Shown here one piece after another: positions 1,352-19,505 of a stretch of 19,505 nt of DNA. The notes beneath the pieces are model-generated. The model did no database searches, was not told where the DNA came from, and saw nothing but the letters and a program-made list of their open reading frames with translations. The stretch is from Candidatus Aenigmatarchaeota archaeon (lineage in GTDB: Archaea; Aenigmatarchaeota; Aenigmatarchaeia; Aenigmatarchaeales; JACQIB01), in the NCBI GenBank assembly GCA_046760225.1, contig JBHIDR010000015.1, positions 1-19,505 on the forward strand, given 5' to 3'. The stretch's first letter is position 1, and each line of letters opens with the position of its first letter. The position numbers were made by a program, and so were the translations under genes.

Positions 1352-1759
1352 TTATCTTATCTTTCTGAGCCTTTCAAATAATTCTTCCATGCTTTCAAAT
1401 TCGATTATCTGGTCGGCTGTCTGGTGTATGAAAGTTGTTCTTATGCCTTTCCTTATGGCCAAGATGAACCTCTTGCCCTTTGCAAGGGCATAGCCGATTT
1501 CCAGCAGCATTCCCTCGCTTCTTTCCTCTGAGTTCACGAAAGCGAGAACAGCGTCTGATTTGTCCAACTCCTCAAACGCGTGTTCCAGTATCTGCTTTTT
1601 TGTAAAATTATTTTTCCTGTAATAATCTTCCTTCCAATATGAGCAGAAATGCTCATGGCCGGCTTTTTCCAAGCTGGAGCAGATTCCCTGTATGTTTTCC
1701 TTTAATTCCTTGTCATCTTCTCCTGTGAACCTGAACGCTATGAATATTTTCATAATCAT
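1352..1759 (-). CDS. Nucleoside 2-deoxyribosyltransferase (NDT)/Rcl-like N-glycosidase family protein
   Basis: KIFIA first strand; LDKSDAVLA; S-E-G-x3-E-I-G-Y-A-x-A-x-G-K motif containing the catalytic Glu. ATGA overlap with the upstream gene. Confidence 0.8.
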   Translation of the reverse strand: MIMKIFIAFRFTGEDDKELKENIQGICSSLEKAGHEHFCSYWKEDYYRKNNFTKKQILEHAFEELDKSDAVLAFVNSEERSEGMLLEIGYALAKGKRFILAIRKGIRTTFIHQTADQIIEFESMEELFERLRKIR

Positions 1760-2610
1760 CCGCCGCCGAATATGTAGCCGCCGCCCGGAGGTATGAGCTT
1801 CTGGATGTCTTCCAGAGGTATTTCCTCTATTAATGGGACGTCTTCTGGCATTGCCTTAATGAGAATCTTTTTCTTGATTTGTTTTGCAAGCTCTGCCTGT
1901 GAAATATCGCCTGGCTTTAATGTGACAAAGTATTCTGCGTTCTTGTTCACTGCCTGCACAGCACCGCATATGGGCTTTGCAATCCTCTTGCCTTCCTTGT
2001 CCTTTTGGAACATGATTCCTATTGCGATCTTTATTTCCATCTTCTTGAGGTAGTTCCTCTTGTGGAACATGAAAGAGCCCTTTGGAAGGTATTCGCCAGC
2101 AGGCGCTTTCTTGCTAACTTCATCATGCTTTGCAAAGAAGGCCCTCATGCTTCCAAGTCCCTGCTTCCATGCACTTGAGTAGGAAATTGCAAACTCTCCG
2201 GCCTCCCTCACAGCAAGGGGTGTTACTGGCTTTCCTTCTGATTTGATTATTGTCAGAGGTGCTCCAGAGATCTCAGCATGAAGAACTATATCACCTTCCT
2301 GCAGGTGCTTCTTGAAGAGCATCTCGTTCTGCGTTGCATCCCTTCCACCAATAACAAGAAAGCCATCGCTTGTGATCATCCAGCGGAACTTCTCGAACCA
2401 CTTGCCCCTTCTCCTCTTCCTCGGTGCTTTCTTCGGTTCTTTCTTCTTCAGGCCCTTCTTCAGTTTCCTTACCTGCCTCCTGGTCTTTTCCAGTGCCTTC
2501 TTTGTTGCCTCTATCTTGCTCTTTGCCCATTTGGCCTCCTCAAAATATTTCTCAGCATTCTCCTGCACTGTCTTCCTGAAATCAATCTCTACTTCTTTCT
2601 TTTTTGCCAT
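1756..2610 (-). CDS. rqcH: Rqc2/RqcH (NEMF, NFACT family) C-terminal half: second coiled-coil helix, NFACT-R and NFACT-C
   Basis: EIDFRKTVQENAEKYFEEAK, KWFEKFRWMITSDGFLVIGGRDATQNE, HAEISGAP, YSSAWK, VSKKAPAGEYLPKGSF and LKPGD are typical of archaeal Rqc2. It has its own RBS (AGGAGATCAAC-ATG). Confidence 0.9.
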   Translation of the reverse strand: MAKKKEVEIDFRKTVQENAEKYFEEAKWAKSKIEATKKALEKTRRQVRKLKKGLKKKEPKKAPRKRRRGKWFEKFRWMITSDGFLVIGGRDATQNEMLFKKHLQEGDIVLHAEISGAPLTIIKSEGKPVTPLAVREAGEFAISYSSAWKQGLGSMRAFFAKHDEVSKKAPAGEYLPKGSFMFHKRNYLKKMEIKIAIGIMFQKDKEGKRIAKPICGAVQAVNKNAEYFVTLKPGDISQAELAKQIKKKILIKAMPEDVPLIEEIPLEDIQKLIPPGGGYIFGGG

Positions 2611-3161
2611 GTTGATCTCCTGAAGAGCGGCAAATCATACTTGATTACAAGTGCTGCTGCAAAGAATGCAAGGCCTATGAAGAACACTATTGCCCATAAC
2701 CATTCCAGAATCATGTTCATGAAAGGCTCATAAGAAACTGGTGCTTCGGTTCCTGTGAATTCTGGTAGTGTCTTTGTTATTTCACCTGCTTCTATAGGTG
2801 TTGTCTGCCTGTATTCTCCTAATTGTGCTGGAACAAGTGAACTGTAAAGGTAAACAGACCCAACAAACATGAATATTACTCCCAAAGTAAGCATCACAGA
2901 GAACTGCACAGGGAACTTGGGCTTCACAAGGTTCCTTCCTTTCCTTGTAAGTTCATAATAAATCCATTTCCTCCCCGTGTGCCTTTTTTCTACCAGATTT
3001 GCTGATTTCAGTTGTTTCAGATGCCCAATAACAGTTGATGCTGCCAAATCCATCTCCTTGGAGAGCTCTGAAGGCATCTTTCTTCTCTCGGCCAGGCTCT
3101 TCATCATATCCACTCTTGTGTCTGATGAGAGTACTTTTATGGTCTTCTTGTCCAGCTTCAT
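2589..3161 (-). CDS. ArsR-family winged-HTH regulator with two C-terminal transmembrane helices
   Basis: KVLSSDTRVDMMKSL...SELSKEMDLAASTVIGHLKQLKSANLV...KWIYYELT is an ArsR-type HTH. Hydrophobic segments FSVMLTLGVIFMFVGSVYLY and WLWAIVFFIGLAFFAAALVI flank a loop of about 45 aa. Confidence 0.85.
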   Translation of the reverse strand: MKLDKKTIKVLSSDTRVDMMKSLAERRKMPSELSKEMDLAASTVIGHLKQLKSANLVEKRHTGRKWIYYELTRKGRNLVKPKFPVQFSVMLTLGVIFMFVGSVYLYSSLVPAQLGEYRQTTPIEAGEITKTLPEFTGTEAPVSYEPFMNMILEWLWAIVFFIGLAFFAAALVIKYDLPLFRRSTWQKRKK

Positions 3162-3277
3162 AATTAGGTTATTAGCTAATGGTAATTTAAATAGTTTCTT
3201 TTTGTTCGGTCTAAAGCTAACATTTTCATTGCCTTATAAAGTGGTGTTCTGGGCAGTCTTTAACTAGAGGTGATAAA

Positions 3278-4285
3278 ATGAAACTGAAGCATTTCATTGC
3301 TGTTCTTATGATAGGCATAATATCACTGGGGAGCACAGCAAGTGCTGCATTTGCAGAAGATACGCTAACCACAACCTGCGGCTACTATGATGAGAATGGT
3401 GACTGGCACGACGGAGGTTGCGACAGCCCTCTGATGGATGTGGTAATAGTTGTGGACAGCACAGGAAGCATGAGCGATGAGATAACACTGGTAAAGGCTA
3501 ACCTAGAAAACCTTGTGGAAGAGATTGCCAGTGGAAATCCAAGGCCTGATGTGAGATTCGGTATTGTGACATACAGGGACCATCCTCCTGAGGACAAGAC
3601 ATATGTGTACAAGAAACTCGACCTTACACATGATGTAGTTATTGTGACAGACTACATCAGAAGCATCAGTGCAAATGGGGGCGGCGACGGTCCGGAAGCT
3701 GTTGCTGATTCAATGCATGTTGCACTGGACATGGACTGGAGGCCTGATGCAAGAAAGATAGTTTATCTTGTGGGAGATGCTCCGCCACATGGGCTGAACC
3801 AGGACGAGCCCTGCCCTGATGGATTTGACTATATGGAAGAAATAAGCAGGGCGCAGGCAATGGAAATCACATTCTACACAATAGGCGCTAGCGGGATTGA
3901 TGGATATGCAAGGGGGGAGGACGTGTTCAAGGAAATAGCAGAACTCACAGGCGGAGAATATGAAAGGCTGACATACACCTACATGCCAGCAGAAGAGTAC
4001 TATGAGGAAAAGGGCCTGGATGAGAAAGAAATAGAAATAATAGAAGCTGATGCAAGCGTGTATGACAGGGAAACAGGTGAGGCTCTTGTTAGCACACTGC
4101 CTTCACTCATGGCTGGCTCAATGAAAGCAGAGGCAACAGCATTGGGAGTTGTGTATGACGATGTGGTTGACGACACAACCGATGACACAAAAGATGACGG
4201 GACAGTTGTGGACAAGAAACCAAAGAAAATGCACTTCAACCCGATTGCAGACTTCCTGAACTGGCTGTTTTCAATATTTGGTTAA
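3278..4285 (+). CDS. Secreted/surface von Willebrand factor type A (vWA) domain protein
   Basis: Signal peptide; MIDAS-like DVVIVVDSTGSM; VRFGIVTYRD; GGGDGPEA; LVGDAPPH; acidic linker; amphipathic C-terminus. RBS GAGGTGAT at 3267-3274. Confidence 0.9.
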   Translation: MKLKHFIAVLMIGIISLGSTASAAFAEDTLTTTCGYYDENGDWHDGGCDSPLMDVVIVVDSTGSMSDEITLVKANLENLVEEIASGNPRPDVRFGIVTYRDHPPEDKTYVYKKLDLTHDVVIVTDYIRSISANGGGDGPEAVADSMHVALDMDWRPDARKIVYLVGDAPPHGLNQDEPCPDGFDYMEEISRAQAMEITFYTIGASGIDGYARGEDVFKEIAELTGGEYERLTYTYMPAEEYYEEKGLDEKEIEIIEADASVYDRETGEALVSTLPSLMAGSMKAEATALGVVYDDVVDDTTDDTKDDGTVVDKKPKKMHFNPIADFLNWLFSIFG

Positions 4286-4324
4286 GAAACCGGAGATATC
4301 CGGTTTCTTTTTATCTCTTCTTTT
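4284..4324 (+). terminator. Stem-loop followed by a T-rich tract (intrinsic terminator-like)
   Basis: AAGAAACCGGA (4284-4294), loop GATA, TCCGGTTTCTT (4299-4309) form a perfect 11-bp stem, followed by TTTATCTCTTCTTTT. It begins at the vWA stop codon. Confidence 0.7.
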
Positions 4325-4335
4325 CGATTATTATT

Positions 4336-4941
4336 ATGATGATAAGGGCCATAGCGTTCGACATGGGCAGCGTGTATGTTTATGCGCCGAGCATGCTTTT
4401 TTACAAAGAAGCAGCCAAGTATTTTGGTATTTCAGCAAAAGAAATGAAGAAGGCCTTTCATGAGCAAAGAGATGACTTTCAGAAAGGCAAGATAAAGGAA
4501 AGTAAGTTCTGGGAGCAGTTCGCAGATGGCTATGGAAAGAAAGCTGATATGAAGGTTATCAGGAAGGCATGGAAAAGAATGACGGATAAAATGAGGGTCG
4601 ACCCTAGCATGGAAGTGGTGGTAAGAAAACTCAAAAAGAAGTACACAGTAGGTGTAATCTCAAACACGGTTGAGTATCATTATAATTTCATAAAGAGAAA
4701 GGGCTGGTACAAGCCGTTCAAACCAGTGATTTGTTCCTGCAAGGTCGGTTACAGAAAGCCTGAAAAAAAGATATACAAACTGTTCCTTCAGAAGGCAAAG
4801 GTCAAGGCAAGTGAAACAGTTTTCGTTGATGATAAGAAAGAATGTGTAGATGGTGCAAGGAGGGTAGGGATGAAAGCTATTTTATTTGAGAACGCACAAC
4901 AATTAAGAAGGGAGTTGGTAAAACTGGGTGTTGAGATTTGA
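4336..4941 (+). CDS. HAD-superfamily phosphatase (YihX/subfamily IA-like)
   Basis: Motif I IAFDMGSV, motif II VISN, motif III RKP, motif IV VFVDD, and GARRVGM. Confidence 0.9.
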   Translation: MMIRAIAFDMGSVYVYAPSMLFYKEAAKYFGISAKEMKKAFHEQRDDFQKGKIKESKFWEQFADGYGKKADMKVIRKAWKRMTDKMRVDPSMEVVVRKLKKKYTVGVISNTVEYHYNFIKRKGWYKPFKPVICSCKVGYRKPEKKIYKLFLQKAKVKASETVFVDDKKECVDGARRVGMKAILFENAQQLRRELVKLGVEI

Positions 4942-5474
4942 AAATACTCATATTGCTGGCTGTATTGGTTGTGTTTGCAGCAGGATGCGTGCAGCAAGAG
5001 GCAAGCACGTATTCTTGCGTATCTGACAGCGATTGCGTGAAGGTTGATGCTGGCTGCTGTGGATGCACTGCAGGCGGCAAGGCAACAGCAATAAACAAGA
5101 ACTTTGTTGAACAGTGGGACGCCAACCTGACAGGGAGCTGCAAGGACATAGTATGCGCAATGGTTATGTCTGATGACCCGAGCTGCTTTGCAGAGCCCAA
5201 ATGTGTGCAAGGGGAGTGTAAATTAATGGCTGCTGACTTGACTGCTGATATAATGGGTTCTTGCGAAGGAGTTGAAGAATGCCCTGAAGGATATGTTTGC
5301 TATTATTCAAAATATACGTTCCCAACGCCAGAAGGCGGATATATAGAAGGTCCACAGGAAGGAGACCTCATGTGCCATAAGCTGTGTGAAAGTGATGATG
5401 ATTGTGAAGGAAAATGTACTGAGACTGGAATGACAGTAGGAGATGCAATTACTACCCATAAAATATGCCGTTAA
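4938..5474 (+). CDS. Cysteine-rich lipoprotein
   Basis: TTG start overlapping the HAD stop; signal peptide with lipobox FAAGC; 18 further Cys in two clusters (10 and 8). Confidence 0.75.
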   Translation: MKILILLAVLVVFAAGCVQQEASTYSCVSDSDCVKVDAGCCGCTAGGKATAINKNFVEQWDANLTGSCKDIVCAMVMSDDPSCFAEPKCVQGECKLMAADLTADIMGSCEGVEECPEGYVCYYSKYTFPTPEGGYIEGPQEGDLMCHKLCESDDDCEGKCTETGMTVGDAITTHKICR

Positions 5475-5506
5475 TTATAAATGCGAGCTTGTCCAGAGTG
5501 AATAGC

Positions 5507-6010
5507 ATGGCTAAGAAAAAAGGAAAGAAGAAATATATTGTCCTGCTCATTGCACTTGTCATAATTCTGGCTGTGGCTTATGTTTATTTCTTCATAATAA
5601 GCCCCACATTTGTTGTAAAACCAGTAATAACAAAGACTGCACTTGGGGAAGACATAGGGGCCAGCAATGTGAACTGGATGGTGAACGAGCTCGGTGCATA
5701 CAAGCTGCATTCTGACCCTCTTAGCGGAGAGCCTGCTGTGATGGAAATCGAGATAACAGACACAGGAGAGAAGTTTGCTGTGACAATTGATGGCAATGTG
5801 CCATCAACTGAGGAGAGTGCTGCTGCGAGCCCTGATATCAGGATAAAGGTGGGAAGCGCGGACTTCACAGAGCTCTACAAATCAGAGGACATTGTCACAA
5901 AAGCAGTTGCAATGCAGAAACAAGGCAAGGTGCAGATAGAGCTTCTGAAGGGAATGGTAGAACTTGCAGCAAAAGGGTACAAGGCAATCTATGATGAGCT
6001 ACAGGTTTAG
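5507..6010 (+). CDS. Membrane-anchored protein with a possible SCP2-like (lipid-binding) domain
   Basis: Likely start is ATG 5507 (MAKKKGKKK followed by a TM helix), with TTATAAA about 26 nt upstream. C-terminal pattern FAVTIDG...PDIRIKV...DF...QGKVQIE resembles SCP2 by eye. Confidence 0.6.
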   Translation: MAKKKGKKKYIVLLIALVIILAVAYVYFFIISPTFVVKPVITKTALGEDIGASNVNWMVNELGAYKLHSDPLSGEPAVMEIEITDTGEKFAVTIDGNVPSTEESAAASPDIRIKVGSADFTELYKSEDIVTKAVAMQKQGKVQIELLKGMVELAAKGYKAIYDELQV

Positions 6011-7117
6011 AACAACTATACCTTCCTTTTCCCTTATTTCCTTTATTGCGCTTGCCTCAGGAGTTGTTTCTTTTTCCAGCCTTTCTTTTATTTCTTCCCA
6101 GCTCAGGCCCGAGTCCCTTGCCTTTTTTATTCCTGCAATTATGTTCTCAACCAGGCCATAATTGTTGTAGATGGCTTCTGCTTTTTTCCTGCTCTCCTTC
6201 TCTATCTTTCTCCATTTCTTTATTGCTTGCTTCTGTTCATCCACAATCCTTTCCAGCCTTTTCATTTCTTCTCCCATCTCTTCCTTCTTTTCCAGCTCTA
6301 TGCCAACTGCTTCCCTGTGCGTGAAATATTCATCAAGTGCTGTTGTGAATGAAGCAAAGCTCCTTGCTTCCTTTCCTTTGTAAAGTCTCATCTTTATTGG
6401 AACAATGTCTATTGGCTTTTTGTCCTCGAAGACTATCTGGGGATTGAATTCTTTTACTATAGAGTGTAAAGAAGAGAAAAGTGCCTTTTTCTCTTCTGCT
6501 GTCAGAGTATTGGAGATCTTTGTCTTTTCTATTCCTGCCCTCAAGCACAGCTCTTCTGCATAAAGGCCTGAGAATGACAAGTCAACCGCAAGAAATTTGA
6601 CAATTGGTTTCCTGCTAGAAGATATAAGGGATGCGAATTCCTGCGGACTTAATATAAAGGGGTTTGCAACAGCAGGAGGATAGTTGTACTTCTTTCTTGG
6701 TGTTATCTGCCTGTCCCTCCACAGCTGGACCTCTAGTGGCATTATTATCATGTAGTCCTTTTGGCAGAGGATTACATTGCCCTTTGAGAAGAGCTCGAAG
6801 ATAAGGATGTTGTTTTCTGTCTCCAGTTCAATTATCCTTTCAAAGCCTGGCTGGCGCACATCAGTTATAATCTGGCCAGAAATGTTTTTCCTCAGGTTCA
6901 TTGCAAAGCTTTCTGCCTCTCCTGCCACGCGCTTGTACTCAGAGATAAAGAGCTTTCCAGGAGCAAAATAAAGCTCGAAAGTGCCCTTGCCTGAAAGGAA
7001 GATCTCGAGCCTTATCTCCTTGTCCTTCTGGTAGGCTTTCTGTATTCTTCCTCCTATCAGGTTCTTGAGCTCATTCTTCAGAAACATCAGGTCCAGGCTA
7101 CTCAGTTCTGTTCGCAT
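5999..7117 (-). CDS. rqcH: Rqc2/RqcH (NEMF, NFACT family) N-terminal half: NFACT-N, HhH and first coiled-coil helix
   Basis: LSSLDL...GGRIQKAYQ, FAMNLRKNI, VRQPGFERII, LIFELFSKGNVIL, DRQITP..KY..PP, GLYAEELCLRAGI, SFTTALDEYF, AEAIYNNY. Ends at IKEIREKEGIVVLNL-stop, within the middle domain. Confidence 0.9.
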   Translation of the reverse strand: MRTELSSLDLMFLKNELKNLIGGRIQKAYQKDKEIRLEIFLSGKGTFELYFAPGKLFISEYKRVAGEAESFAMNLRKNISGQIITDVRQPGFERIIELETENNILIFELFSKGNVILCQKDYMIIMPLEVQLWRDRQITPRKKYNYPPAVANPFILSPQEFASLISSSRKPIVKFLAVDLSFSGLYAEELCLRAGIEKTKISNTLTAEEKKALFSSLHSIVKEFNPQIVFEDKKPIDIVPIKMRLYKGKEARSFASFTTALDEYFTHREAVGIELEKKEEMGEEMKRLERIVDEQKQAIKKWRKIEKESRKKAEAIYNNYGLVENIIAGIKKARDSGLSWEEIKERLEKETTPEASAIKEIREKEGIVVLNL

Positions 7118-7121
7118 ATAA

Positions 7122-7721
7122 TCACTTTTTGAATGTCATGAAAAACAGCGGGTCTTTGAATATGTCTTTGACATTGTTGAAAGCCTTTTTGACAACTTCT
7201 TCCTTAACTCTATGCTTTCCAGTAAGAGGATCGAATATCAGGAATTTGCTGTCTTTGAATCCTGCTATCACTATGAAGTGTAATCCTCTTTTACGACCTG
7301 TTAGAACACTTGAGTCAATCAAAGGAATAATAAAATCATTTTCCTTTACCGCTTTCTTCAGATGGTCGAAACTTATCTTCCTAGTGTAAATCTTTATACC
7401 AGTCTTCTTTGCCATTTTCTTGTAAAGGTCTCCCATATACATCATGTTTTTAACGTCTTTTTTGGAATAGCCCTGCTTTTTAGCAAACTTATAATGGGCC
7501 TTTCCACTCTTGTACATTTTCACTTTAATTTTATTTTTTGCAGCTATGTAACCCAGGGCATATGCTGAAGTATACCTATGTGGAAGTATTACTGCTTGGG
7601 TCCAGAACATGAACTCGTCCTCCCTCTTTAGCTTGAATTTCTGAGGATAGTAATGGTTCAGAATCATTAGCAAGCATGAAGGACCGCATGTATTATCCGT
7701 TGTCTGTTTGTACAGTCTCAT
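7122..7721 (-). CDS. Standalone peptidase C39-like (papain-fold) cysteine protease
   Basis: Likely start ATG 7721 after GGAAGGTGA. Q-x5-C (YKQTTDNTCGPSCL), His (GLHFIVIAG) and Asp (LIFDP) complete the triad. No signal peptide. Confidence 0.8.
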   Translation of the reverse strand: MRLYKQTTDNTCGPSCLLMILNHYYPQKFKLKREDEFMFWTQAVILPHRYTSAYALGYIAAKNKIKVKMYKSGKAHYKFAKKQGYSKKDVKNMMYMGDLYKKMAKKTGIKIYTRKISFDHLKKAVKENDFIIPLIDSSVLTGRKRGLHFIVIAGFKDSKFLIFDPLTGKHRVKEEVVKKAFNNVKDIFKDPLFFMTFKK

Positions 7722-8250
7722 TTTCCTTTTCACCTTCCTCTGCCTTTTCCTCTTCAGTGAGTTTTTCAAAGAGCTTCTTTGCTTCTTCAGGGCTCTCAAG
7801 GCCGAAGTACTCTGCAAATTCCTTTGTTGCTATGAGCTTTTTTGTCCTCCCGAACTTCTCTGTCTTTATCAGGCCCTTTGCAACCAGCTGCTTGACATAC
7901 TCGTATGTTCTGTTGCCTATTACCTTTACAATCTCTGACTGGGTAATGGGCTGCTTGTAGGCCACGAGCGCGAGCACGCGCAGCAGGCCCCTGCTGAGAT
8001 CTTGGTAAGGTGTTAGTGGACGTACAGTAGGCGCATAATCAGGCTTGACCCTTATCTGGAAGCCTTCTGCTGTCTCAATGAGCCTTATGCCATGCTCTTC
8101 AGAATCAAGCTCTTTCTTGTATTGATTTATGAGTTCAGCAGCCCTTTCCTCATCAATCCTCAGTATTTTTGAAATCTGTTTGAGTGTAAGGGGCTTGTTG
8201 CTCATGAAAAGCGTTGCTTCAAGCATTGCCCTCTTGTTCCTTCTCTTCAT
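7693..8250 (-). CDS. scpB: Segregation and condensation protein B (SMC kite subunit)
   Basis: LEATLFMSNKPL, GFQIR, LSRGLLRVLALVAYKQPITQSEI, GRT, TKEFAEYFGL; adjacent to scpA. Confidence 0.95.
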   Translation of the reverse strand: MKRRNKRAMLEATLFMSNKPLTLKQISKILRIDEERAAELINQYKKELDSEEHGIRLIETAEGFQIRVKPDYAPTVRPLTPYQDLSRGLLRVLALVAYKQPITQSEIVKVIGNRTYEYVKQLVAKGLIKTEKFGRTKKLIATKEFAEYFGLESPEEAKKLFEKLTEEEKAEEGEKENETVQTDNG

Positions 8251-8944
8251 TTTCCTCCTCCTTCCTGAGTTTCACGTATATCTCTTTGAATAGTTCTGGC
8301 TGCTCATATATAATTTTTCCTTCCTGGGAAAGATGGAGCATTGGTACAAGGGTCTTCACTATGTCTTCCCTTTCCCATCTGCTAAGCAGCTTTGAGAATT
8401 CAACACTGCCTTCTATGTCCTTCATTATGTCCTCTATATGGCTGAGGAGCCTGTCAATCCTCTCAGAGATGTCCTCTTCTGCTGGAGGCACTGCTTCCCT
8501 CACCCTTCTTCTTACCCTTGCTTTCCTCTCAATCCTCCTTTCCTTGACTTCAAATGCCTTTTTCAGTGCTGTCAGCAGTTCTTCAACTGATACAGTGGCA
8601 AGCGGCATTCTCTTAATAGGAGGCTCCAGGGGAGGCACTTTTGCCAGGGCCTGTAGAATAGGGCTGAGTGGTTTTTCAGACTCAGGGAGAAAGAGCTTCC
8701 TTTTCTTTTCAATCAGTATGTCTGACTTCATCCTGAGCAGGATGGCTGCTATGAGTATGAACCTTGCCGGAACCCTGAGGTCTGTGCGCTCCATCCTCGC
8801 CAGGTAATCGGTAAACGCATCAGCCAACCTTATCAGGTCTATTTTCCAGGGATCCATGCCTTCCTCTGCCACTATCTTTACAATCACGTCTTCCCAGCTT
8901 GGCTCATTTACCATCAGTTGTATGAGCTGTTTGTCTGTAAGCAT
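8219..8944 (-). CDS. scpA: Segregation and condensation protein A (kleisin)
   Basis: MDPWKIDL, FILIAAILLRMKS, VSVEELLTAL, and a C-terminal winged helix (LVPMLHL..EGKI..EQPELFKEI). Confidence 0.95.
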   Translation of the reverse strand: MLTDKQLIQLMVNEPSWEDVIVKIVAEEGMDPWKIDLIRLADAFTDYLARMERTDLRVPARFILIAAILLRMKSDILIEKKRKLFLPESEKPLSPILQALAKVPPLEPPIKRMPLATVSVEELLTALKKAFEVKERRIERKARVRRRVREAVPPAEEDISERIDRLLSHIEDIMKDIEGSVEFSKLLSRWEREDIVKTLVPMLHLSQEGKIIYEQPELFKEIYVKLRKEEENEEKEQEGNA

Positions 8945-8994: not shown

Positions 8995-9774
8995 TTACCT
9001 ATTGTATTCTATTAGGGCAATGGCTGAGAACCCTGTTGTATGGATGAGGTTATTCCCTCTACATTCTCCTCCATGGCACCAGCTACCATCTTCACTCTGG
9101 TTATTTGCTATCTCATGGATCCATTCACTCCTGACCTTCTCGGGATATCCTGTCATCAACAATACGGCTGTTCTCTCGGCAAATATGTCACTGAAAGACT
9201 CGCCTTCCTGGTCAGAAACAATGCGGTCACTCAGTACATCCATTGCATCCTCAAGAACTGCCCCATCAAAACATCCTCTTTCCTTAGCAAAATAAAGCCC
9301 TAGGAGGGCATGGGCAGTATCATATCCGCCATCATCTATGTTCTTTATATCATCTACATGTTTTGTTTCAAGAGGATAGTCATTACAATAAATCCCTCTC
9401 AGTACTGCGTTTCCGCTGGCCGTGCCAAGATATCCGCTGTTCTCGAAATCCTCCGCTCCATAAGAAGGGTCAAGCAGCTTCTTGTAAATTGAATCTGGCC
9501 CATTATACGTTTCGAATATGGCATCCATCTTTTGCCTGAGCTCCTGGCTGCCTGCTCTTTCTCCCACTTCACTCATCAAAAATATCGAAGCCATGTCCAT
9601 GCTCTCATACTCTGCTTCATACTGCAATAGAAAATCTAATGCCTTTTCCACATGGTCCTCAATGGTTTCTGGAGGAGCTATTATAAAGGCTGTAATCGGT
9701 GCTATTATAAAGACTGCGATGATTGCCGCCATTACAAGCACTATCATGGAAGAGAATTTCTTTGTATTTTTCAA
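8995..9774 (-). CDS. Membrane-anchored/secreted acidic helical protein with a QW-like (alpha/alpha toroid) motif, function unknown
   Basis: TTG start after GGTGAG; N-terminal TM segment; GYDTAHALLGL, DIFAERTAVL, NNQSEDGSW and HTTGFSAIAL resemble prenyltransferase/terpene cyclase-like helical repeats. Confidence 0.55.
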   Translation of the reverse strand: MKNTKKFSSMIVLVMAAIIAVFIIAPITAFIIAPPETIEDHVEKALDFLLQYEAEYESMDMASIFLMSEVGERAGSQELRQKMDAIFETYNGPDSIYKKLLDPSYGAEDFENSGYLGTASGNAVLRGIYCNDYPLETKHVDDIKNIDDGGYDTAHALLGLYFAKERGCFDGAVLEDAMDVLSDRIVSDQEGESFSDIFAERTAVLLMTGYPEKVRSEWIHEIANNQSEDGSWCHGGECRGNNLIHTTGFSAIALIEYNR

Positions 9775-11791: not shown

Positions 11792-14700
11792 CTACGGCAT
11801 CCTGATGCCAACGAGCTTTGATTCTCCTGCTTCCATTGACACGCCGTACACGCAGTCAGCAGCCTGGATTGTGGTGTCGTTGTGGGTGATTACCACGAAC
11901 TGGGCCATCTCTGAGTGCTTTCTGAGGAAGTCTGTTATCTTTAATGTATTCACCTTGTCAAGTGCTGCGTCTATCTCGTCCAGCACATAGAAGGGAGCTG
12001 GCCTGAATTTCTGGATTGCAAAAAGGAAAGCAAGTGCTGTTAGTGTTTTTTCACCGCCTGACATTGCATCAATGTTCAGTACCTTCCTTCCTGGCGGGCT
12101 TGCCTCGATTATGAGGCCTGAGTCTTCTAAGACTTCACCTTCTAATCTGAGGCTTCCTTCGCCCCCGACAAGGTCATGGAAAATCAGCTTGAACTGCTCG
12201 GAAACAGCGTTCATTGTCTCAAGGAATGTTTCCTTTCTCCTTCCCTCTATCTCAGCAATGACCTGGAGCACCTTGTCCCTTTCACTTGTGAGCTTGTCCA
12301 CCTTGTCCTTGAGATCATCATAGACCTTTTTCAGCTGCTTGTGCTCCTCAACTGCCTTCTGGTTAATCGGCCCAAGTGAGTTTATCTTTGTGAGAGCGTC
12401 CCTTATCTTTGCCTGGAGCGTGCTGACAGCAAGGTCGTAAAGCTCTTCTTCCTTGAACTTCCTTGTCTCGCCGAACTCCTGTTTGAGGTTCTCGAGCTGT
12501 GCCTCCAGCCTTGCACGGTTTATCTTCAGCCTGTTCAGCTCCTCGTGTGCAGTAAGCTTTTTCTCATTCAATGACCTCCTCCTTTCCCTGAGGTCGCGCA
12601 GCTGCTGCTCTGTCTTCTGCTTCTTCTCTTCTGCTTTCCTTATCTCTTCTGAGCCTGCCTTTTCCTTGCTTAACATCCTTTCTAGTTCCTTCTTCAGCTT
12701 GTCTGTTTCCTCAGCCAGTACCCGGTTGTCCTCCTCTATTGCCTTTATGTTCTGCTCATACCTCCTTATCTCGCCTGTCTGCGTGAACACTGGTTTCTCC
12801 TTCCTGAAGAAGCCCCCTATCACAGCGCCTCCCCTTTCAACTAGGTCACCATCAAGAGTGACCATCCTGAGTTTTCCGAACCCTATCCTCTTTGCAGTGT
12901 CAATGTTGTTGACAACAAGCGTGTCTCCGAAAACATGGGAGAATGCGTGCCAGTACTTCTTGTCAAAATCTACCAGGTTTATTGCAAAATCAACTGCGCC
13001 CTTCTCCTTCAGGTATTTCTTCAGCCTGCTGTTGTCCCTTTCCCTTATCCTGTCAAGGGGGAGGAATGTGGCCCTGCCAATCTTGTTCTTCTTCAGGTGC
13101 TTGATGCATTCAACTGCTGTTGAGGAATCAGAAACAACCAGGTCCTGCATGTGGTGCCCTGCTGCAACAGCAATCGCGGTGCTGTACTTTGACGGCACCT
13201 TTGACAGTGAGCCCACTGTCCCAAAGACATCAGGATGTTTCAGCTTTAATACCTCCTGCACTGCCCTGCTCATTGCCAGCTGCCTTTGCTTTTCCTCGAC
13301 TGCGCGCAGCTTCTGTATCATGTCCCTGTACCTTTCAATGGACATGCGGTTGCCCTCTATCTTGTTCTCCCTGTTGTATATCTGGGCACGCAGCTGCTCA
13401 ACCTTCTTTATTATTTCAACGTCCTTTGTCCTGTCAAAGAGCCTCTGCCTTATCCTCTCTATGCTCTTCTCGTCCTTGTCCAGCTGAGACTCTATTTTTT
13501 CCACCTGAGTGCTGAACTTGCCGAAGTCCTCATCCTTCTTCCTTATCTTGTTGTCCAGCTTCTGCATCGCTTTCTCAGCTTCGTTCAGCTTCCTGGTTGC
13601 AAGCGATGCCCTCAGCTTGTCAAGGTCATTCGCATACTTGCTGTATTCCTCAGCAGCTATCCTTTCAACTTCCAGCTTTTTCAGCTGGGTCTCCTTTTCA
13701 TTCAGGATTATTGATGATTCCTTGAGCCTTTCCTCCACTGTGAGCAGTTCTCTCTGGGCCTTGTGCCTCTTTTCCTCGAACTCAGATATGCCAGAAATCT
13801 CATCTATTATCTCCCTCCTCTCTATCGGGCCCATCTCTATCACTTCTGTGACATCTCCCTGGAGAATTATGTTGTGGCCATCAGGCCTTATATTACCGGC
13901 ACGCAATACTTCCAGTATCTTTTCCCTTGTCACAGTCTTTCCGTTCAGCTTGTATATTGAGACCCCTCTTCTGTTCACTTTCCTTGACACTGATATTACA
14001 TCCTCTTCAATCGGAAATACCCTGTCCTTGTTGCTGAAATATATCTTTACCTTTGCGAATTCAGCAGGCTTCTTGCCCTTGCCTCCGTTGAATATCATAC
14101 CTAGCATCTTCTTTGCCCTCAGGCTCTTTGCAGATGTCCTTCCGAGCACAAAGCATATTGCATCGAGGATGTTGCTATTGTGTACGAAAATACCATTGCC
14201 TATAAAATTATGGCAATTTGGTATTGTTAGGTCGTATACCCATTTCTCACCTTTAACTTTCTCTATCTTTTCTATCTTATCCCAGAAAATATCAGAATTC
14301 GCCAAAAGTTGTAAAGTCTTCATTATCTTCTTGGACTCTGAGAGCTTTTCTTCTATTTGAGATTTTACAAACTTGAACAGTTTTTCAAGATTTTCTGGCT
14401 TAGGACCATATTTGCCGTGTGCCCAATTAGAGTTGATGGTATCAGGATGTAGACCAATTGCAATACTAGCATCAGACCTTTTGATTTTTAGCTTGCGCAT
14501 AAATTTTAGTAAAAGTTTTTTGTCCTTCTTAAGGTTCTTCTTTAAACTTTTAATATCCTCGATATGCGCTCTAAATATCGAAAATGCTTCCTCAATACCT
14601 TCTCGCGTAGGACAGCATCGATTTTCATTATAAGCAGCAAACCTTGGGTACTTCTTTCTTAAAGATTTGTATTCGATACCCAATAGATGTCTACATTCCT

Positions 14701-15907
14701 TTATCAAGATATTTACATCTTGTGGCAGAACATCTAAATTAGGATTAGTGATGATATTTTTATTTGCCCACATTCTCAATCGTTTCTTTTTATGTTCACA
14801 TCTCAAGGGAATAGCTTCATAGAAGGCTTTTAATTTCTCTTTACCTTCGATGACAATATGATAATATTTTCTTCTGGTTTTGTTCTTCGTATTTGTTGCA
14901 TATTTCATTTTTGCCTTTTTTCTTGCAACTATGCCAAATCTTAAGAGAGACAACTGTACCTGGTCTGCCAATTTTGGGCTATTTGTTACGTATTCAAGGG
15001 TAGGGTTGTCCTTCCTTATGGATGCATCACAATCAAACAACGCAGCCAGGAAGTTTGCCAAGATATATTTTTGTGAAAATAATATCTCTTTCGGTATGTG
15101 TTTATTCTTGCCTTTGTACCTTTGATTGAAAAGCGTTGCTAATGACTTCACCAACATCCTTGAATTAAGGCACACCAACGTTGCCTTTCCTCTATAGTCA
15201 TAATTGTGCAATATTGGCTTATAACCCAAATTTTTGGATATGAAAACAAAATCCCTAATCAATTCCTTATCGGCGTTGACAAAGTCGCATCTTCTGCAGT
15301 TTCCTTGAACCTTGATATGTCCGTCACTTACCATATAACCTAGGAATCTTGCAAACTCCGGACTTAGAGTCCAAGGTATACCTGATATTTCCAGTCTGAA
15401 TTTTCTTTCAGGCAAGTCTAGTTTGTTGGGTGTTGCAATAAGTTCCCCTTTCTTAAGGGCATTGACAACTTCTGATCGAACCTCCCCGTTTTTATAAATC
15501 ATAACCGGGTGACAACCAGTCGTTGTGACACGCTTTCCGGTCCTCGTTTTTATCTCATATAAGTAGGGCTCGCCTTTCCTTTTGATGAAGGCAGATATAT
15601 TCTTTTCGACTACTTTCATAGAATTCGGATCGAGCCCCCATGTCTTAAGGCCTTCTGGATTCTCGAGCGTATATACACCGTCATCCATTTTTAACTTATT
15701 TTTGCATTGATTAAGAGTAGTATCTACTATTTCGCCCAATGGCCTGATTGTGCCATCACTTAATATCACTTCAGTATCCCATTTTGCACTCTTCCCGCTG
15801 CCGTTCGGGCCACATACGATTGAGAAGTCGCTCGGGAAGAGTATCGCTGTCTTCTTTGCAAAGGACTTGAACCCCTGCATCTCGAGCTTCTCTATCCTTG
15901 TTTTCAT
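11792..15907 (-). CDS. smc: Chromosome segregation protein Smc (intein-containing precursor, 1371 aa; 833 aa after splicing)
   Basis: GFKSF; Walker A GPNGSGK/SNILDAI interrupted by an intein; Q-loop ILQG; hinge GRATFLPL and GX6GX3GG (GDLVERGGAVIGG); LGPIN; signature MSGGEK; Walker B/D-loop YVLDEIDAALD; H-loop VITH. Confidence 0.97.
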   Translation of the reverse strand: MKTRIEKLEMQGFKSFAKKTAILFPSDFSIVCGPNGSGKSAKWDTEVILSDGTIRPLGEIVDTTLNQCKNKLKMDDGVYTLENPEGLKTWGLDPNSMKVVEKNISAFIKRKGEPYLYEIKTRTGKRVTTTGCHPVMIYKNGEVRSEVVNALKKGELIATPNKLDLPERKFRLEISGIPWTLSPEFARFLGYMVSDGHIKVQGNCRRCDFVNADKELIRDFVFISKNLGYKPILHNYDYRGKATLVCLNSRMLVKSLATLFNQRYKGKNKHIPKEILFSQKYILANFLAALFDCDASIRKDNPTLEYVTNSPKLADQVQLSLLRFGIVARKKAKMKYATNTKNKTRRKYYHIVIEGKEKLKAFYEAIPLRCEHKKKRLRMWANKNIITNPNLDVLPQDVNILIKECRHLLGIEYKSLRKKYPRFAAYNENRCCPTREGIEEAFSIFRAHIEDIKSLKKNLKKDKKLLLKFMRKLKIKRSDASIAIGLHPDTINSNWAHGKYGPKPENLEKLFKFVKSQIEEKLSESKKIMKTLQLLANSDIFWDKIEKIEKVKGEKWVYDLTIPNCHNFIGNGIFVHNSNILDAICFVLGRTSAKSLRAKKMLGMIFNGGKGKKPAEFAKVKIYFSNKDRVFPIEEDVISVSRKVNRRGVSIYKLNGKTVTREKILEVLRAGNIRPDGHNIILQGDVTEVIEMGPIERREIIDEISGISEFEEKRHKAQRELLTVEERLKESSIILNEKETQLKKLEVERIAAEEYSKYANDLDKLRASLATRKLNEAEKAMQKLDNKIRKKDEDFGKFSTQVEKIESQLDKDEKSIERIRQRLFDRTKDVEIIKKVEQLRAQIYNRENKIEGNRMSIERYRDMIQKLRAVEEKQRQLAMSRAVQEVLKLKHPDVFGTVGSLSKVPSKYSTAIAVAAGHHMQDLVVSDSSTAVECIKHLKKNKIGRATFLPLDRIRERDNSRLKKYLKEKGAVDFAINLVDFDKKYWHAFSHVFGDTLVVNNIDTAKRIGFGKLRMVTLDGDLVERGGAVIGGFFRKEKPVFTQTGEIRRYEQNIKAIEEDNRVLAEETDKLKKELERMLSKEKAGSEEIRKAEEKKQKTEQQLRDLRERRRSLNEKKLTAHEELNRLKINRARLEAQLENLKQEFGETRKFKEEELYDLAVSTLQAKIRDALTKINSLGPINQKAVEEHKQLKKVYDDLKDKVDKLTSERDKVLQVIAEIEGRRKETFLETMNAVSEQFKLIFHDLVGGEGSLRLEGEVLEDSGLIIEASPPGRKVLNIDAMSGGEKTLTALAFLFAIQKFRPAPFYVLDEIDAALDKVNTLKITDFLRKHSEMAQFVVITHNDTTIQAADCVYGVSMEAGESKLVGIRMP
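14177..15790 (-). mobile_element. Intein (538 aa, precursor residues 40-577) with LAGLIDADG homing endonuclease domain
   Basis: Block A SAKWDTEVILSDG; block B VTTTGCHPV (TxxH); LAGLIDADG-like FLGYMVSDG and FLAALFDCDAS; blocks F/G WVYDLTIPNCHNFIGNGIFVHN with +1 Ser. Excision restores GPNGSGKSNILDAI. Confidence 0.95.
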
Positions 15908-17688: not shown

Positions 17689-18645
17689 ATGGGGTCAGAT
17701 AAGAATAAAGCCGAGCCTCTTGATATAATCGGAAAGCTGTTATCTATAATTCTATTTATCGTAATTTTATCGATTCCAGTATCCTTGGGAATTCTTTGGG
17801 TCCGTGGAGAAATCACGTTACTAAATGCTGTAGGTTTTGTAATAATATTCTTGGGGGCTTTGGGTTACTGGGACGTTTTCAGATATTTCAGGACTAACAA
17901 GACATATCAATCTATCCCTGCAATAGCAATCGAAGGCATAGCAATGGGGCTAACAAAAATAAAAGGTAGGGTTGCTCCGTTCCCAAAAGAGAAGCTTATG
18001 ACAAGCCCGATGGGCAGGAAGAAGTGTGTTTACTTCCTAATAGAAGAGTGCGATAGGGAAGGGTGCAGTACTGTCAACGAAAAGAGAATAAAGTTCTACC
18101 TGAAGGACAGGACAGGCCAGGTTCTTGTTGATCCAAAATGGTCATCTATTGGTCTAAAAGGACAGAAGTTTACCAGCCTCAAACTCATCTTTCGGGAAAA
18201 AATAGGAAAATACAAAGAACCTAAATTAAGTGCATACGAATACCTCTCTAATTATACAGGCTACCCGAAAGGAAAAAGACCCAGTTTCAAAAACTTCAAG
18301 AAAAAGGAGACCGGTGCTGCCTTGAAGTTCTCATCCCGTGAAAGGACATATATCGAACGCATCATAAAACCGGGCGACAAACTTTTTATATTCGGGACAG
18401 CAAAGGACAATCCTTTTGTTAAGGAAACAACAGCAATCAAGGCTGTGAGAGACATAATGATACAGAGTGGGAAAAAACATATTTTCGATTCATATCCACC
18501 ATATTTTATAACTCATTGGCCAATAAAATGGGGCGGTACTAGACCCTTGCCAATCAACTGGTCCGGTCTTATTAGCAGCATAATAATGATACTTGTGGGT
18601 GTTGTCATGGTGAGCATAAATCTGGAATTTGGTCCCCTTATTTAA
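17689..18645 (+). CDS. Membrane protein with a GIDE-like domain (no RING finger)
   Basis: Two N-terminal TM segments and one C-terminal TM segment; G..KIKGRV, SP.GRKKCVYF, FYLKDRTGQVLVDP and ERIIKPGDKLFIFG resemble the GIDE domain. Confidence 0.65.
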   Translation: MGSDKNKAEPLDIIGKLLSIILFIVILSIPVSLGILWVRGEITLLNAVGFVIIFLGALGYWDVFRYFRTNKTYQSIPAIAIEGIAMGLTKIKGRVAPFPKEKLMTSPMGRKKCVYFLIEECDREGCSTVNEKRIKFYLKDRTGQVLVDPKWSSIGLKGQKFTSLKLIFREKIGKYKEPKLSAYEYLSNYTGYPKGKRPSFKNFKKKETGAALKFSSRERTYIERIIKPGDKLFIFGTAKDNPFVKETTAIKAVRDIMIQSGKKHIFDSYPPYFITHWPIKWGGTRPLPINWSGLISSIIMILVGVVMVSINLEFGPLI

Positions 18646-19505
18646 CTATTCGTACGGCACGTCCTTTCTCCAGTCACGCTTGTCGTACGGTTCAAAGAGA
18701 AGCTCTGCCTCCTTTTCCCCGAGCGGAAGACGGACCTTGTTCTTGGCAAGCAGGTTGCAGAAGTCCGTGCTTGTATAAATGCCAATGCACTTCTTGTCTA
18801 CTGGATACATCTGGAGCGCATCAGCCAACTGGTAGCTGAAGTCCCTTGTGTTGTCAGAGACTATGCTGACATCAAGGTCTGTGGACTCCAAGATCCTTAA
18901 TGCAGTAAATATGAGCGCCCTGTCAGCGTCATCGCTGCCAAGATAGGATGAAATATCTTCCCATGCTTTCTTCTCGTATTCTGTAAGATGGTTGTTGATA
19001 TGGTAGTTCAGCATCCTGTTGTTCAGCCTTTTTCCGAACGGGGTATAGAGCTTTACAAACAGCCCATCAGAACCCCTTGCAACCTCTCTGACCCAGCGCC
19101 ACATCTTTTTCCTTTCGACATACTTGCATGAATCATTGTTTTTCCTGTAGTGGTCTATAAACCTGTGAAAATTCTTTTCCATAGCAATTCCCATCTCATC
19201 AAAGATAAAGTCAGGTATTGCCAGTATTATGTCAATCTTTTCCTTGCCCCAGTCCCTCATGACATCTGTTATCTTCATGCTATGGGTGCAGAGGGTATTG
19301 TACACGAAGCTTGCAAGATCATTCAAGCCGTTTGTAACAAAAGAATAGGTTCTTGCGCCATCACGTACCCTGTATATTGTCCCTTTTTCCTCATGCTTCC
19401 ATTTCAGCCAGTCCTTTATTCCGTCCTCTCCCAGCTGGTACAACGAGAGCCCTGCAAACGGTATGTTGGTGTCTACGAGCACGACTTCCCTATAGCCGTT
19501 CTCCT
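18646..19505 (-). CDS. Hypothetical protein with PIN-like motifs, probably 5'-truncated by the window edge
   Basis: The frame stays open past GTG 19482 to the edge (..ENGYREVVLVDTNIPF). hhhDTN, DDADRALIFTA and IVSDNTRDF resemble PIN acidic motifs. Confidence 0.5.
   Translation of the reverse strand, partial: ENGYREVVLVDTNIPFAGLSLYQLGEDGIKDWLKWKHEEKGTIYRVRDGARTYSFVTNGLNDLASFVYNTLCTHSMKITDVMRDWGKEKIDIILAIPDFIFDEMGIAMEKNFHRFIDHYRKNNDSCKYVERKKMWRWVREVARGSDGLFVKLYTPFGKRLNNRMLNYHINNHLTEYEKKAWEDISSYLGSDDADRALIFTALRILESTDLDVSIVSDNTRDFSYQLADALQMYPVDKKCIGIYTSTDFCNLLAKNKVRLPLGEKEAELLFEPYDKRDWRKDVPYE

Follow-up and report, generated by a model that had tools for sequence, protein, structure and literature searches.

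Can a ribosome quality-control (RQC) factor of the RqcH family, the homologues of yeast Rqc2 and human NEMF, be made as two chains when its gene is cut in two, or does such a cut mark a gene that has decayed, whose products are rejoined or which was wrongly assembled? This question is raised by a 19,505-nt stretch of DNA from Candidatus Aenigmatarchaeota archaeon (assembly GCA_046760225.1, contig JBHIDR010000015.1), hereafter “the window”, in which rqcH is found as two open reading frames (ORFs) on the minus strand, an N-half and a C-half. Judged from its sequence, the window encodes two separately translated polypeptides. We consider it probable that they represent a genuinely split rqcH of an Aenigmatarchaeota-like DPANN archaeon, the halves of which reassemble into a normal RqcH.

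The N-half gene (5999..7117, minus strand) has an ATG start and encodes 372 aa plus a stop, its translation ending with ...KEGIVVLNL; it comprises NFACT-N, HhH, coiled-coil helix 1 and the first part of the middle (M) domain. The C-half gene (1756..2610, minus strand), likewise with an ATG start, encodes 284 aa plus a stop; its translation begins with MAKKKEVEIDFRKTVQENA and comprises the third M-domain strand, coiled-coil helix 2, NFACT-R and the C-terminal domain. An initial annotation of the window had described these two intact ORFs, and its coordinates, lengths and quoted chain ends were all found to be as given there.

The two ORFs match complementary shares of the same family profiles. 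Of the 456 positions of Pfam NFACT_N, the N-half covers 4-364 (E 1.7e-48) and the C-half 368-418 (E 5e-5), while residues 74-183 of the C-half match Pfam NFACT-R_1 (PF05670, E 7.7e-34). Against the archaeal RqcH profile of NCBIfam (RqcH_arch, NF041120; 645 positions), the N-half is aligned over positions 1-376 with 299 bits and the C-half over positions 380-641 with 317 bits; the equivalog cut-off of 400 bits refers to the whole protein, and either half alone scores lower. The two RqcH_arch matches abut, with no overlap and at most three profile positions missing, and such abutting, complementary shares identify the two ORFs as halves of one RqcH/Rqc2 from which nothing has been lost, in agreement with the earlier claim that the halves join without overlap or loss. 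Among solved structures, the N-half aligns to residues 1-403 of human NEMF, and the C-half to NEMF residues 461-661 (E 2e-40) and to yeast Rqc2 residues 503-706. The domain content that had been assigned to the N-half (NFACT-N, HhH and coiled-coil helix 1) is likewise supported by Pfam, by RqcH_arch, by the NEMF alignment and by the mapped model of a fused relative, P0017, to which we return below.

Within the N-half, the NFACT-N plus HhH region extends over residues ~1-256 (6350..7117, minus strand), as placed by profile coverage and by the P0017 model mapped through alignment. It is followed by coiled-coil helix 1 at residues 257-318 (6164..6349, minus strand), mapped from model helix 256-317, and by the N-half share of the M domain (6002..6163, minus strand), which according to the model and to junction alignments consists of two short helices and the strands 358-362 and 367-370. 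The C-half takes up the fold with the third M-domain strand at residues 7-10, EIDF (2581..2592, minus strand; model strand 374-377), and with coiled-coil helix 2 at residues 15-51 (2458..2568, minus strand; model helix 382-418), and continues with the NFACT-R domain delimited by PF05670 (2062..2391, minus strand). Its C-terminal region (1759..2043, minus strand), at the position of NFACT-C, is recognised as the end of archaeal RqcH by coverage of RqcH_arch up to position 641 of 645; no match to Pfam NFACT-C was obtained there at E<=0.01. Of the features of the NFACT family, NFACT-N together with HhH, the two coiled-coil helices and NFACT-R are thus all present in the window, only not on a single polypeptide.

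In one conserved stretch of NFACT-R (C-half residues ~153-183), the window and its nearest C-half relative, P0122, read SMRAFFAKHDEVSKK, where most relatives have S-DVYWV-PEQVSKT; both are also one residue short in FMFH-KRN. A frameshift was considered as the cause of this deviant stretch and rejected: the aromatic and flanking residues are kept, and P0122, which is 86–87% identical, has the same stretch.

Where is the chain cut? The N-half chain ends two residues past a beta strand (...GIVVLNL), and the C-half begins a few residues ahead of the next strand (EVEIDF). When the halves are aligned with fused relatives and further split pairs, the fused proteins are seen to have only a turn of 2-4 residues between these two strands. 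The fused relative P0017 (647 aa), which shares 58% identity with the N-half and 54% with the C-half, was modelled with AlphaFold2 from a 26-sequence alignment, reaching a mean predicted local distance difference test score (pLDDT) of 88.9 and a predicted template modelling score (pTM) of 0.67. In the model, a helix (256-317) is followed by two short helices, strands 356-360 and 365-368, loop 369-373, strand 374-377 and a second helix (382-418). The two long helices map gap-free onto N-half residues 257-318 and C-half residues 15-51, hence in the window onto different chains, and loop 369-373 corresponds through the alignment to the site of the cut. The best structural matches of the model are NEMF (9gy4_Z, E 5e-40), Rqc2 (8aaf_a) and B. 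subtilis RqcH (8s1u_H, 7aqc_R, 7as8_0), with E values for these chains ranging from 5e-40 to 1e-22. By this mapping, the cut is placed in the hairpin turn that links beta strands 2 and 3 of the M domain, where the antiparallel coiled coil reaches its distal tip. The split at the middle domain that had been reported for the window is, therefore, not only upheld but narrowed to one hairpin turn within the M domain, at the point where the hairpin-shaped protein extends furthest.

A hairpin-shaped RqcH that is cut at its tip would leave two chains lying side by side along the whole of their contact. In the window protein, helix 1 of the N-half would pair in antiparallel fashion with helix 2 of the C-half, and the three-stranded sheet of the M domain would be completed in trans by the strand that the C-half supplies. 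Non-covalent reassembly of the halves into a normal RqcH is the most likely outcome; this protein would then bind the large ribosomal subunit carrying peptidyl-tRNA with NFACT-N/HhH coming from one chain and NFACT-R from the other. For Bacillus subtilis RqcH, it has been described that the tip of coiled coil and M domain (CC-M) touches uL11/H44 at the stalk base, that NFACT-R touches the A-site finger, and that the coiled coil opens in a scissor-like manner during the cycle (bioRxiv 10.1101/2020.09.03.281279). B. subtilis RqcH, yeast Rqc2 and human NEMF share fold and domain order with the model of the fused archaeal relative; they are, however, single chains whose structures have been solved on the large subunit. 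The single-chain archaeal RqcH (NF041120; P0017 and locus L001) has the same domains in the same order as the window. The difference is that it is one 647-aa chain with a 2-4 residue turn, at the place of which the window has a stop codon and, beyond 3.4 kb occupied by other genes, a second start.

The two-piece form is by no means confined to the window. Among the best 119 other protein matches of the N-half, 83 are N-only proteins of 330-400 aa, 32 are fused proteins of 560-700 aa, three are shorter and one is in between; among the best 119 of the C-half, 88 are C-only proteins of 240-300 aa, most of which start directly at the third strand. Where source names are given, these relatives come from Aenigmatarchaeota, Altiarchaeota, Woesearchaeota, Nanoarchaeota and Diapherotrites. 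For the two halves, the closest relatives lie at similar distances from the window (P0003 with 83% and P0122 with 86-87% identity), and the two-piece form is seen from 87% down to ~35% identity.

A genome scan with one genome per species yielded 554 confirmed relatives, the best 80 of which were sorted by locus. An uninterrupted fused gene is found in 40 of these 80 loci, and an N-only ORF that ends on the same M-domain strand, with no C-half in the locus, in 33; five loci run off a contig end and two (L025 and L079) are irregular. The same break point thus recurs in related genomes, in 33 of the 80 loci and in the majority of the closest relatives at protein level, as a survey proposed with the initial annotation was to establish; two loci from Nanoarchaeota-labelled metagenome-assembled genomes (MAGs), L052 and L025, also break at the same turn as the window. 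The halves co-occur in the window, in locus L025 and in eight N/C pairs whose longest contigs are of identical size.

The two irregular loci deserve separate mention. In L025 (1218-4407), the N-half is present in two ORFs (130 and 187 aa), followed by a 466-aa cysteinyl-tRNA-synthetase-like gene and a 253-aa C-half, all on one strand; with its collinear halves and a gene inserted between them, this locus resembles the window. L079 (1790-2100) carries a fused-type rqcH whose M domain is interrupted by an in-frame TGA, 18 codons ahead of the usual break, and then by an in-frame TAA, 12 codons ahead of it; this could reflect pseudogenisation, a sequencing error or a recent fission. Furthermore, the split N-halves of five loci labelled “uncultured Methanosarcinales” (L012, L023, L036, L042 and L068) are nested among those of Woesearchaeota, and the N-half of L074 (“Njordarchaeota”) shares 96% identity with the N-half of an Altiarchaeales MAG; it is questionable whether these contigs are correctly labelled or binned.

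How the split and the fused forms are related was approached with trees of either part of the protein. The N-part locus tree, obtained in a quick IQ-TREE search, comprises 74 rows (the window, 40 fused and 33 split loci; the five cut-off and the two irregular loci were excluded). A starred branch (support 98) sets apart 25 non-DPANN rows, every one of them fused; on its other side are 49 rows, 34 split and 15 fused. The statement that RqcH is normally one chain consequently stands outside DPANN (25 of 25 rows fused) but does not carry over to the DPANN-type archaea, where the two-gene form is common. On this tree, the label “split” or “fused” has to change at least six times, at least four of these changes being forced by starred branches, and in none of 500 shuffles did so few changes suffice.

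In a denser N-part tree around the window (68 rows; P0049 and P0051 were excluded as partial), the window groups with P0003 (97, starred) and P0004 (99, starred) in a 15-row group that is entirely split; this group lies inside a 58-row clade with 33 split and 25 fused members, for which at least four changes are forced. The C-part tree (66 rows) mirrors the N-part tree, with the window joining P0122 (100, starred) and at least four interchanges between split and fused. In both trees, the split pair P0018/P0157 is sister to the fused P0021 (644 aa; 99 and 100, both starred), a recent change of state. The longest contig of P0018 and that of P0157 each measure 740,627 nt. The congruence of the N-part and C-part trees implies that the halves evolve together and that the state switches within lineages rather than by transfer of one half; the trees register switches of either direction alike and do not separate fission from re-fusion.

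Nei-Gojobori estimates of the ratio of nonsynonymous to synonymous substitution rates (dN/dS) were made for nine pairs of split N-halves of relatives, of which four are saturated at synonymous sites and three have a dS above 2; the remaining pairs give 0.13 (L028/L029, dS 0.55) and 0.26 (L031/L074, dS 0.08). Split N-halves of relatives are under purifying selection. Moreover, residues that are invariant in the fused family are also invariant in the split halves, for instance R94, G113, N114, D107 and H111. Read together, the sequences indicate that the split is genuine, maintained and recurrent in DPANN-type archaea and is not a product of decay. That fission at this one hairpin turn arose or was reversed several times independently in these archaea, and that continuity of the tip is dispensable for RQC, is a broader proposition, which we put forward tentatively and rate as somewhat less probable than its opposite.

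Gene order offers a clue as to which half has moved. In the nearest fused locus, L001 (225-5784), smc, scpA, scpB and rqcH are contiguous on one strand. The pair scpA-scpB lies upstream of rqcH in the fused loci L001, L066, L040 and L073, with smc upstream of scpA in L001 and L066, as it also does in the window, and in the split locus L002 scpB stands immediately before the N-half. From this context, common to fused loci, L002 and the N-half of the window, it follows that the N-half has kept the ancestral position and that the C-half is the piece that was moved. The latter is now found 3.4 kb from the N-half, behind and overlapping the gene of an ArsR-type membrane protein.

The immediate surroundings of the two genes can be described as follows. 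Upstream of the N-half, scpA (8219-8944), scpB (7693-8250) and a C39-like peptidase (7122-7817) are recognised by Pfam, all on the minus strand, the stop codon of the peptidase lying 4 nt ahead of the N-half ATG. The longest ORFs of scpB and of the peptidase, the latter with a TTG start, overlap by 125 nt (7693-7817); the start of the peptidase probably lies further downstream than in its longest ORF. Upstream of the C-half is an ORF (2589..3161, minus strand) for an ArsR-type helix-turn-helix (HTH) protein (Pfam HTH_5, E 1.1e-10; NCBIfam ArsR/SmtB) with two hydrophobic segments (hydropathy windows ~82-112 and 146-180), the end of which overlaps the C-half start by 22 nt; the element TATTTAAATT is located at 3184-3193, ~27 nt ahead of its ATG. 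Inside the end of this ORF, a Shine-Dalgarno-like GGAGAT (2620-2615, minus strand), read directly from the DNA, precedes the C-half ATG by 4 nt and presumably acts as ribosome-binding site. At its other end, the C-half stop is overlapped by 4 nt by the start of a nucleoside 2-deoxyribosyltransferase-like ORF (1352..1759, minus strand).

Between the halves, the ArsR-type ORF is accompanied by four ORFs on the opposite, plus strand, two of which match families of the libraries (VWA, 3278-4285; HAD, 4336-4941) and two of which are without family (4938-5474 and 5465-6010). With four of the five intervening ORFs on the opposite strand, co-transcription of the halves is unlikely, as far as the layout tells. 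The layout set out in the initial annotation is hereby corroborated in its several parts: five intact genes in 3.4 kb separate the collinear, same-strand halves; the C-half has a start signal of its own, if GGAGAT serves as supposed; and the operon contexts differ, the N-half lying behind scpA-scpB and the C39-like peptidase and the C-half behind the ArsR-type ORF. Repeats in 1500-7300 are short and chance-like, with none flanking 2610 and 5999; a mobile-element signature around the 3.4-kb interval was, therefore, rejected.

A heterodimer is the best reading of these data, but several points weigh against it. The contact of the halves is drawn from the model of a different, fused relative, and the branch support of the trees consists of Shimodaira-Hasegawa-like approximate likelihood ratio test (SH-aLRT) values from quick searches only. 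By gene order and strand, the halves sit in different transcription units of the window, and no C-half is nearby in any of the 16 N-only loci flanked on either side by 7.6 kb or more of sequence; with halves that are usually unlinked, equal dosage is not guaranteed. Finally, the deviant NFACT-R stretch shared by the C-half of the window and P0122 could reflect an altered function. The unlinked loci, the separate operons and the lineage-specific NFACT-R change would all suit an alternative in which the halves are now independent, with the C-half acting alone on the large subunit like a stand-alone NFACT-R, the N-half acting alone as a tRNA-binding factor, and no stable heterodimer being formed. 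Stand-alone NFACT-R architectures do exist (Burroughs and Aravind 2014), CCDC25 (coiled coil plus NFACT-R) is among the fold matches of the P0017 model, and in B. subtilis a class with little density for NFACT-N/HhH was still bound to the 50S subunit, according to bioRxiv 2020.09.03.281279. We nevertheless regard independence as unlikely, since each half still has its long helix of the coiled coil and its part of the M-domain sheet, for which there is no obvious role alone, since the trees of the two parts are congruent and close lineages switch between split and fused, and since new domains have been gained by neither half. CCDC25/Jlp2-type proteins resemble the C-half in carrying a helix and NFACT-R without NFACT-N, but are described by Burroughs and Aravind (2014) as partial duplications that coexist with a full NFACT protein, whereas the C-half of the window is the only visible carrier of NFACT-R and would pair with the N-half.

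Other readings would dispense with a functional two-chain protein in different ways. That the fragments are pseudogene remnants of a decaying gene might be expected in the reduced genomes of DPANN archaea, and both the irregular copies (the two in-frame stops of L079 and the N-half of L025 broken into ORFs of 130 and 187 aa) and the scores of the halves below the 400-bit cut-off of RqcH_arch speak for it. Decay is, however, very unlikely for ORFs that are of full length over their share of the profile, persist in two pieces from 87% to ~35% identity, have dN/dS values of 0.13-0.26 among the split N-halves of relatives, and keep the invariant residues of the fused family. Nor do we give more than a very slight chance to the halves being rejoined into one chain by split inteins or by RNA trans-splicing, although an intein of the LAGLIDADG type that looks functional is present in smc of the same window and Nanoarchaeum joins tRNA halves in trans (Podar 2013, PMC3655853). 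Each of the two genes has its own start and stop codon, and the Pfam and NCBIfam libraries, which do detect the smc intein, matched no intein family in either half. As the RqcH profile match reaches the last residue of the N-half and begins at residue 6 of the C-half, there is also no room for split-intein pieces, the absence of which had been noted at the outset. An assembly or sequencing artefact of this contig, finally, is scarcely credible, given that the halves are separated by 3.4 kb with five intact ORFs and that the two-piece form has independent records, including halves of 83% and 86% identity on other contigs and 33 genome loci.

What had been implied about the rarity and novelty of such a gene went too far: the two-gene form is common in DPANN-type archaea, and the family was tabulated as split in 2013. 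A split NFACT/RqcH gene is said to be contained also in the work of Waters et al. from 2003. Table 1 of Podar et al. (2013, PMC3655853) lists a “predicted RNA-binding protein” whose split site is common to N. equitans (NEQ438/NEQ506) and Nst1 (Nst1_176/Nst1_251), and supplementary files 2 and 6 of that paper assign both Nst1 pieces to arCOG01695, equated with COG1293. COG1293, in turn, is the group that supplied RqcH sequences in bioRxiv 10.1101/2020.09.03.281279, and in PMC9670130 it bears the name “predicted RNA-binding protein” for a fibronectin-binding protein. By this chain of identities (arCOG01695, COG1293, RqcH family), a published record of a split NFACT/RqcH gene has existed since 2013. 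The Nanoarchaeota gene belongs to the same family as that of the window and also has the two-gene form; what distinguishes the present case is its occurrence in an Aenigmatarchaeota-like genome and the wide distribution of the form in DPANN-type archaea.

For other split genes of DPANN archaea (those of reverse gyrase, alanyl-tRNA synthetase, Dph2 and PheT), the halves are reported at separate loci and post-translational assembly is presumed (PMC6349945, PMC4975002, PMC3655853). They resemble the rqcH of the window in that fission has occurred between structural units; in rqcH, by contrast, the cut lies inside the hairpin turn of a small domain, and split and fused forms alternate among close relatives. 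In their treatment of split genes, the DPANN review PMC6349945 and the Altiarchaeales paper PMC4975002 discuss such other genes, not rqcH, and the word “split” is absent from the main text of Burroughs and Aravind (2014). A literature search, with bioRxiv supplements outside its scope, retrieved no publication on an archaeal or split Rqc2/RqcH/NEMF, nor any under NEQ438/NEQ506.

The window is, accordingly, a further case, in an Aenigmatarchaeota-like genome, of a class of split genes that had been listed before for Nanoarchaeota. Possibly new are the wide spread of this class among DPANN-type archaea, the precise placing of the cut in a hairpin turn and the finding that the gene has switched repeatedly between the split and the fused form. 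The findings leave the known picture of how RQC works unchanged. A natural two-chain RqcH, if real, would mean that the M-domain turn need not be continuous, and would lend itself directly to dissecting the separate contributions of the two halves on the large subunit; it could likewise serve to address the proposed scissor-like opening of the coiled coil, the tip of which touches the stalk base. Independent and recurrent fission, if it applies, would yield a natural heterodimeric RqcH with separately dosable halves. Flipping between the two forms at one permissive site among close relatives makes, in addition, a clean case for the fixation of fission in reduced genomes. There is also a practical side: the halves fall below the RqcH equivalog cut-off and are named in their sources “NFACT family protein”, “DUF814 domain-containing protein” or “hypothetical”, so that surveys may score many DPANN archaea as lacking RqcH.

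Some features of the remainder of the window are recorded here. The Mut7-C/AMMECR1 neighbourhood reported for archaeal NFACT genes (Burroughs and Aravind 2014) was not seen in the Pfam/NCBIfam annotation of the window, and no tRNA, tmRNA or Rfam family was found in it. Besides the two ORFs between the rqcH halves (4938-5474 and 5465-6010, plus strand), three more lack a convincing Pfam/NCBIfam family (8995-9774, minus strand; 17689-18645, plus strand; 18646-19482, minus strand), these five ORFs measuring 178-318 aa. The smc gene (11792-15907, minus strand; 1371 aa) contains the intein mentioned above at ~14177-15769 (residues ~47-577), near the N-terminal ATPase motif and with a LAGLIDADG endonuclease domain, and GC falls to 0.36 in the segment 14001-15000. 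In the nearest relative, L001, smc can be aligned across the intein site, the intein itself being absent there.

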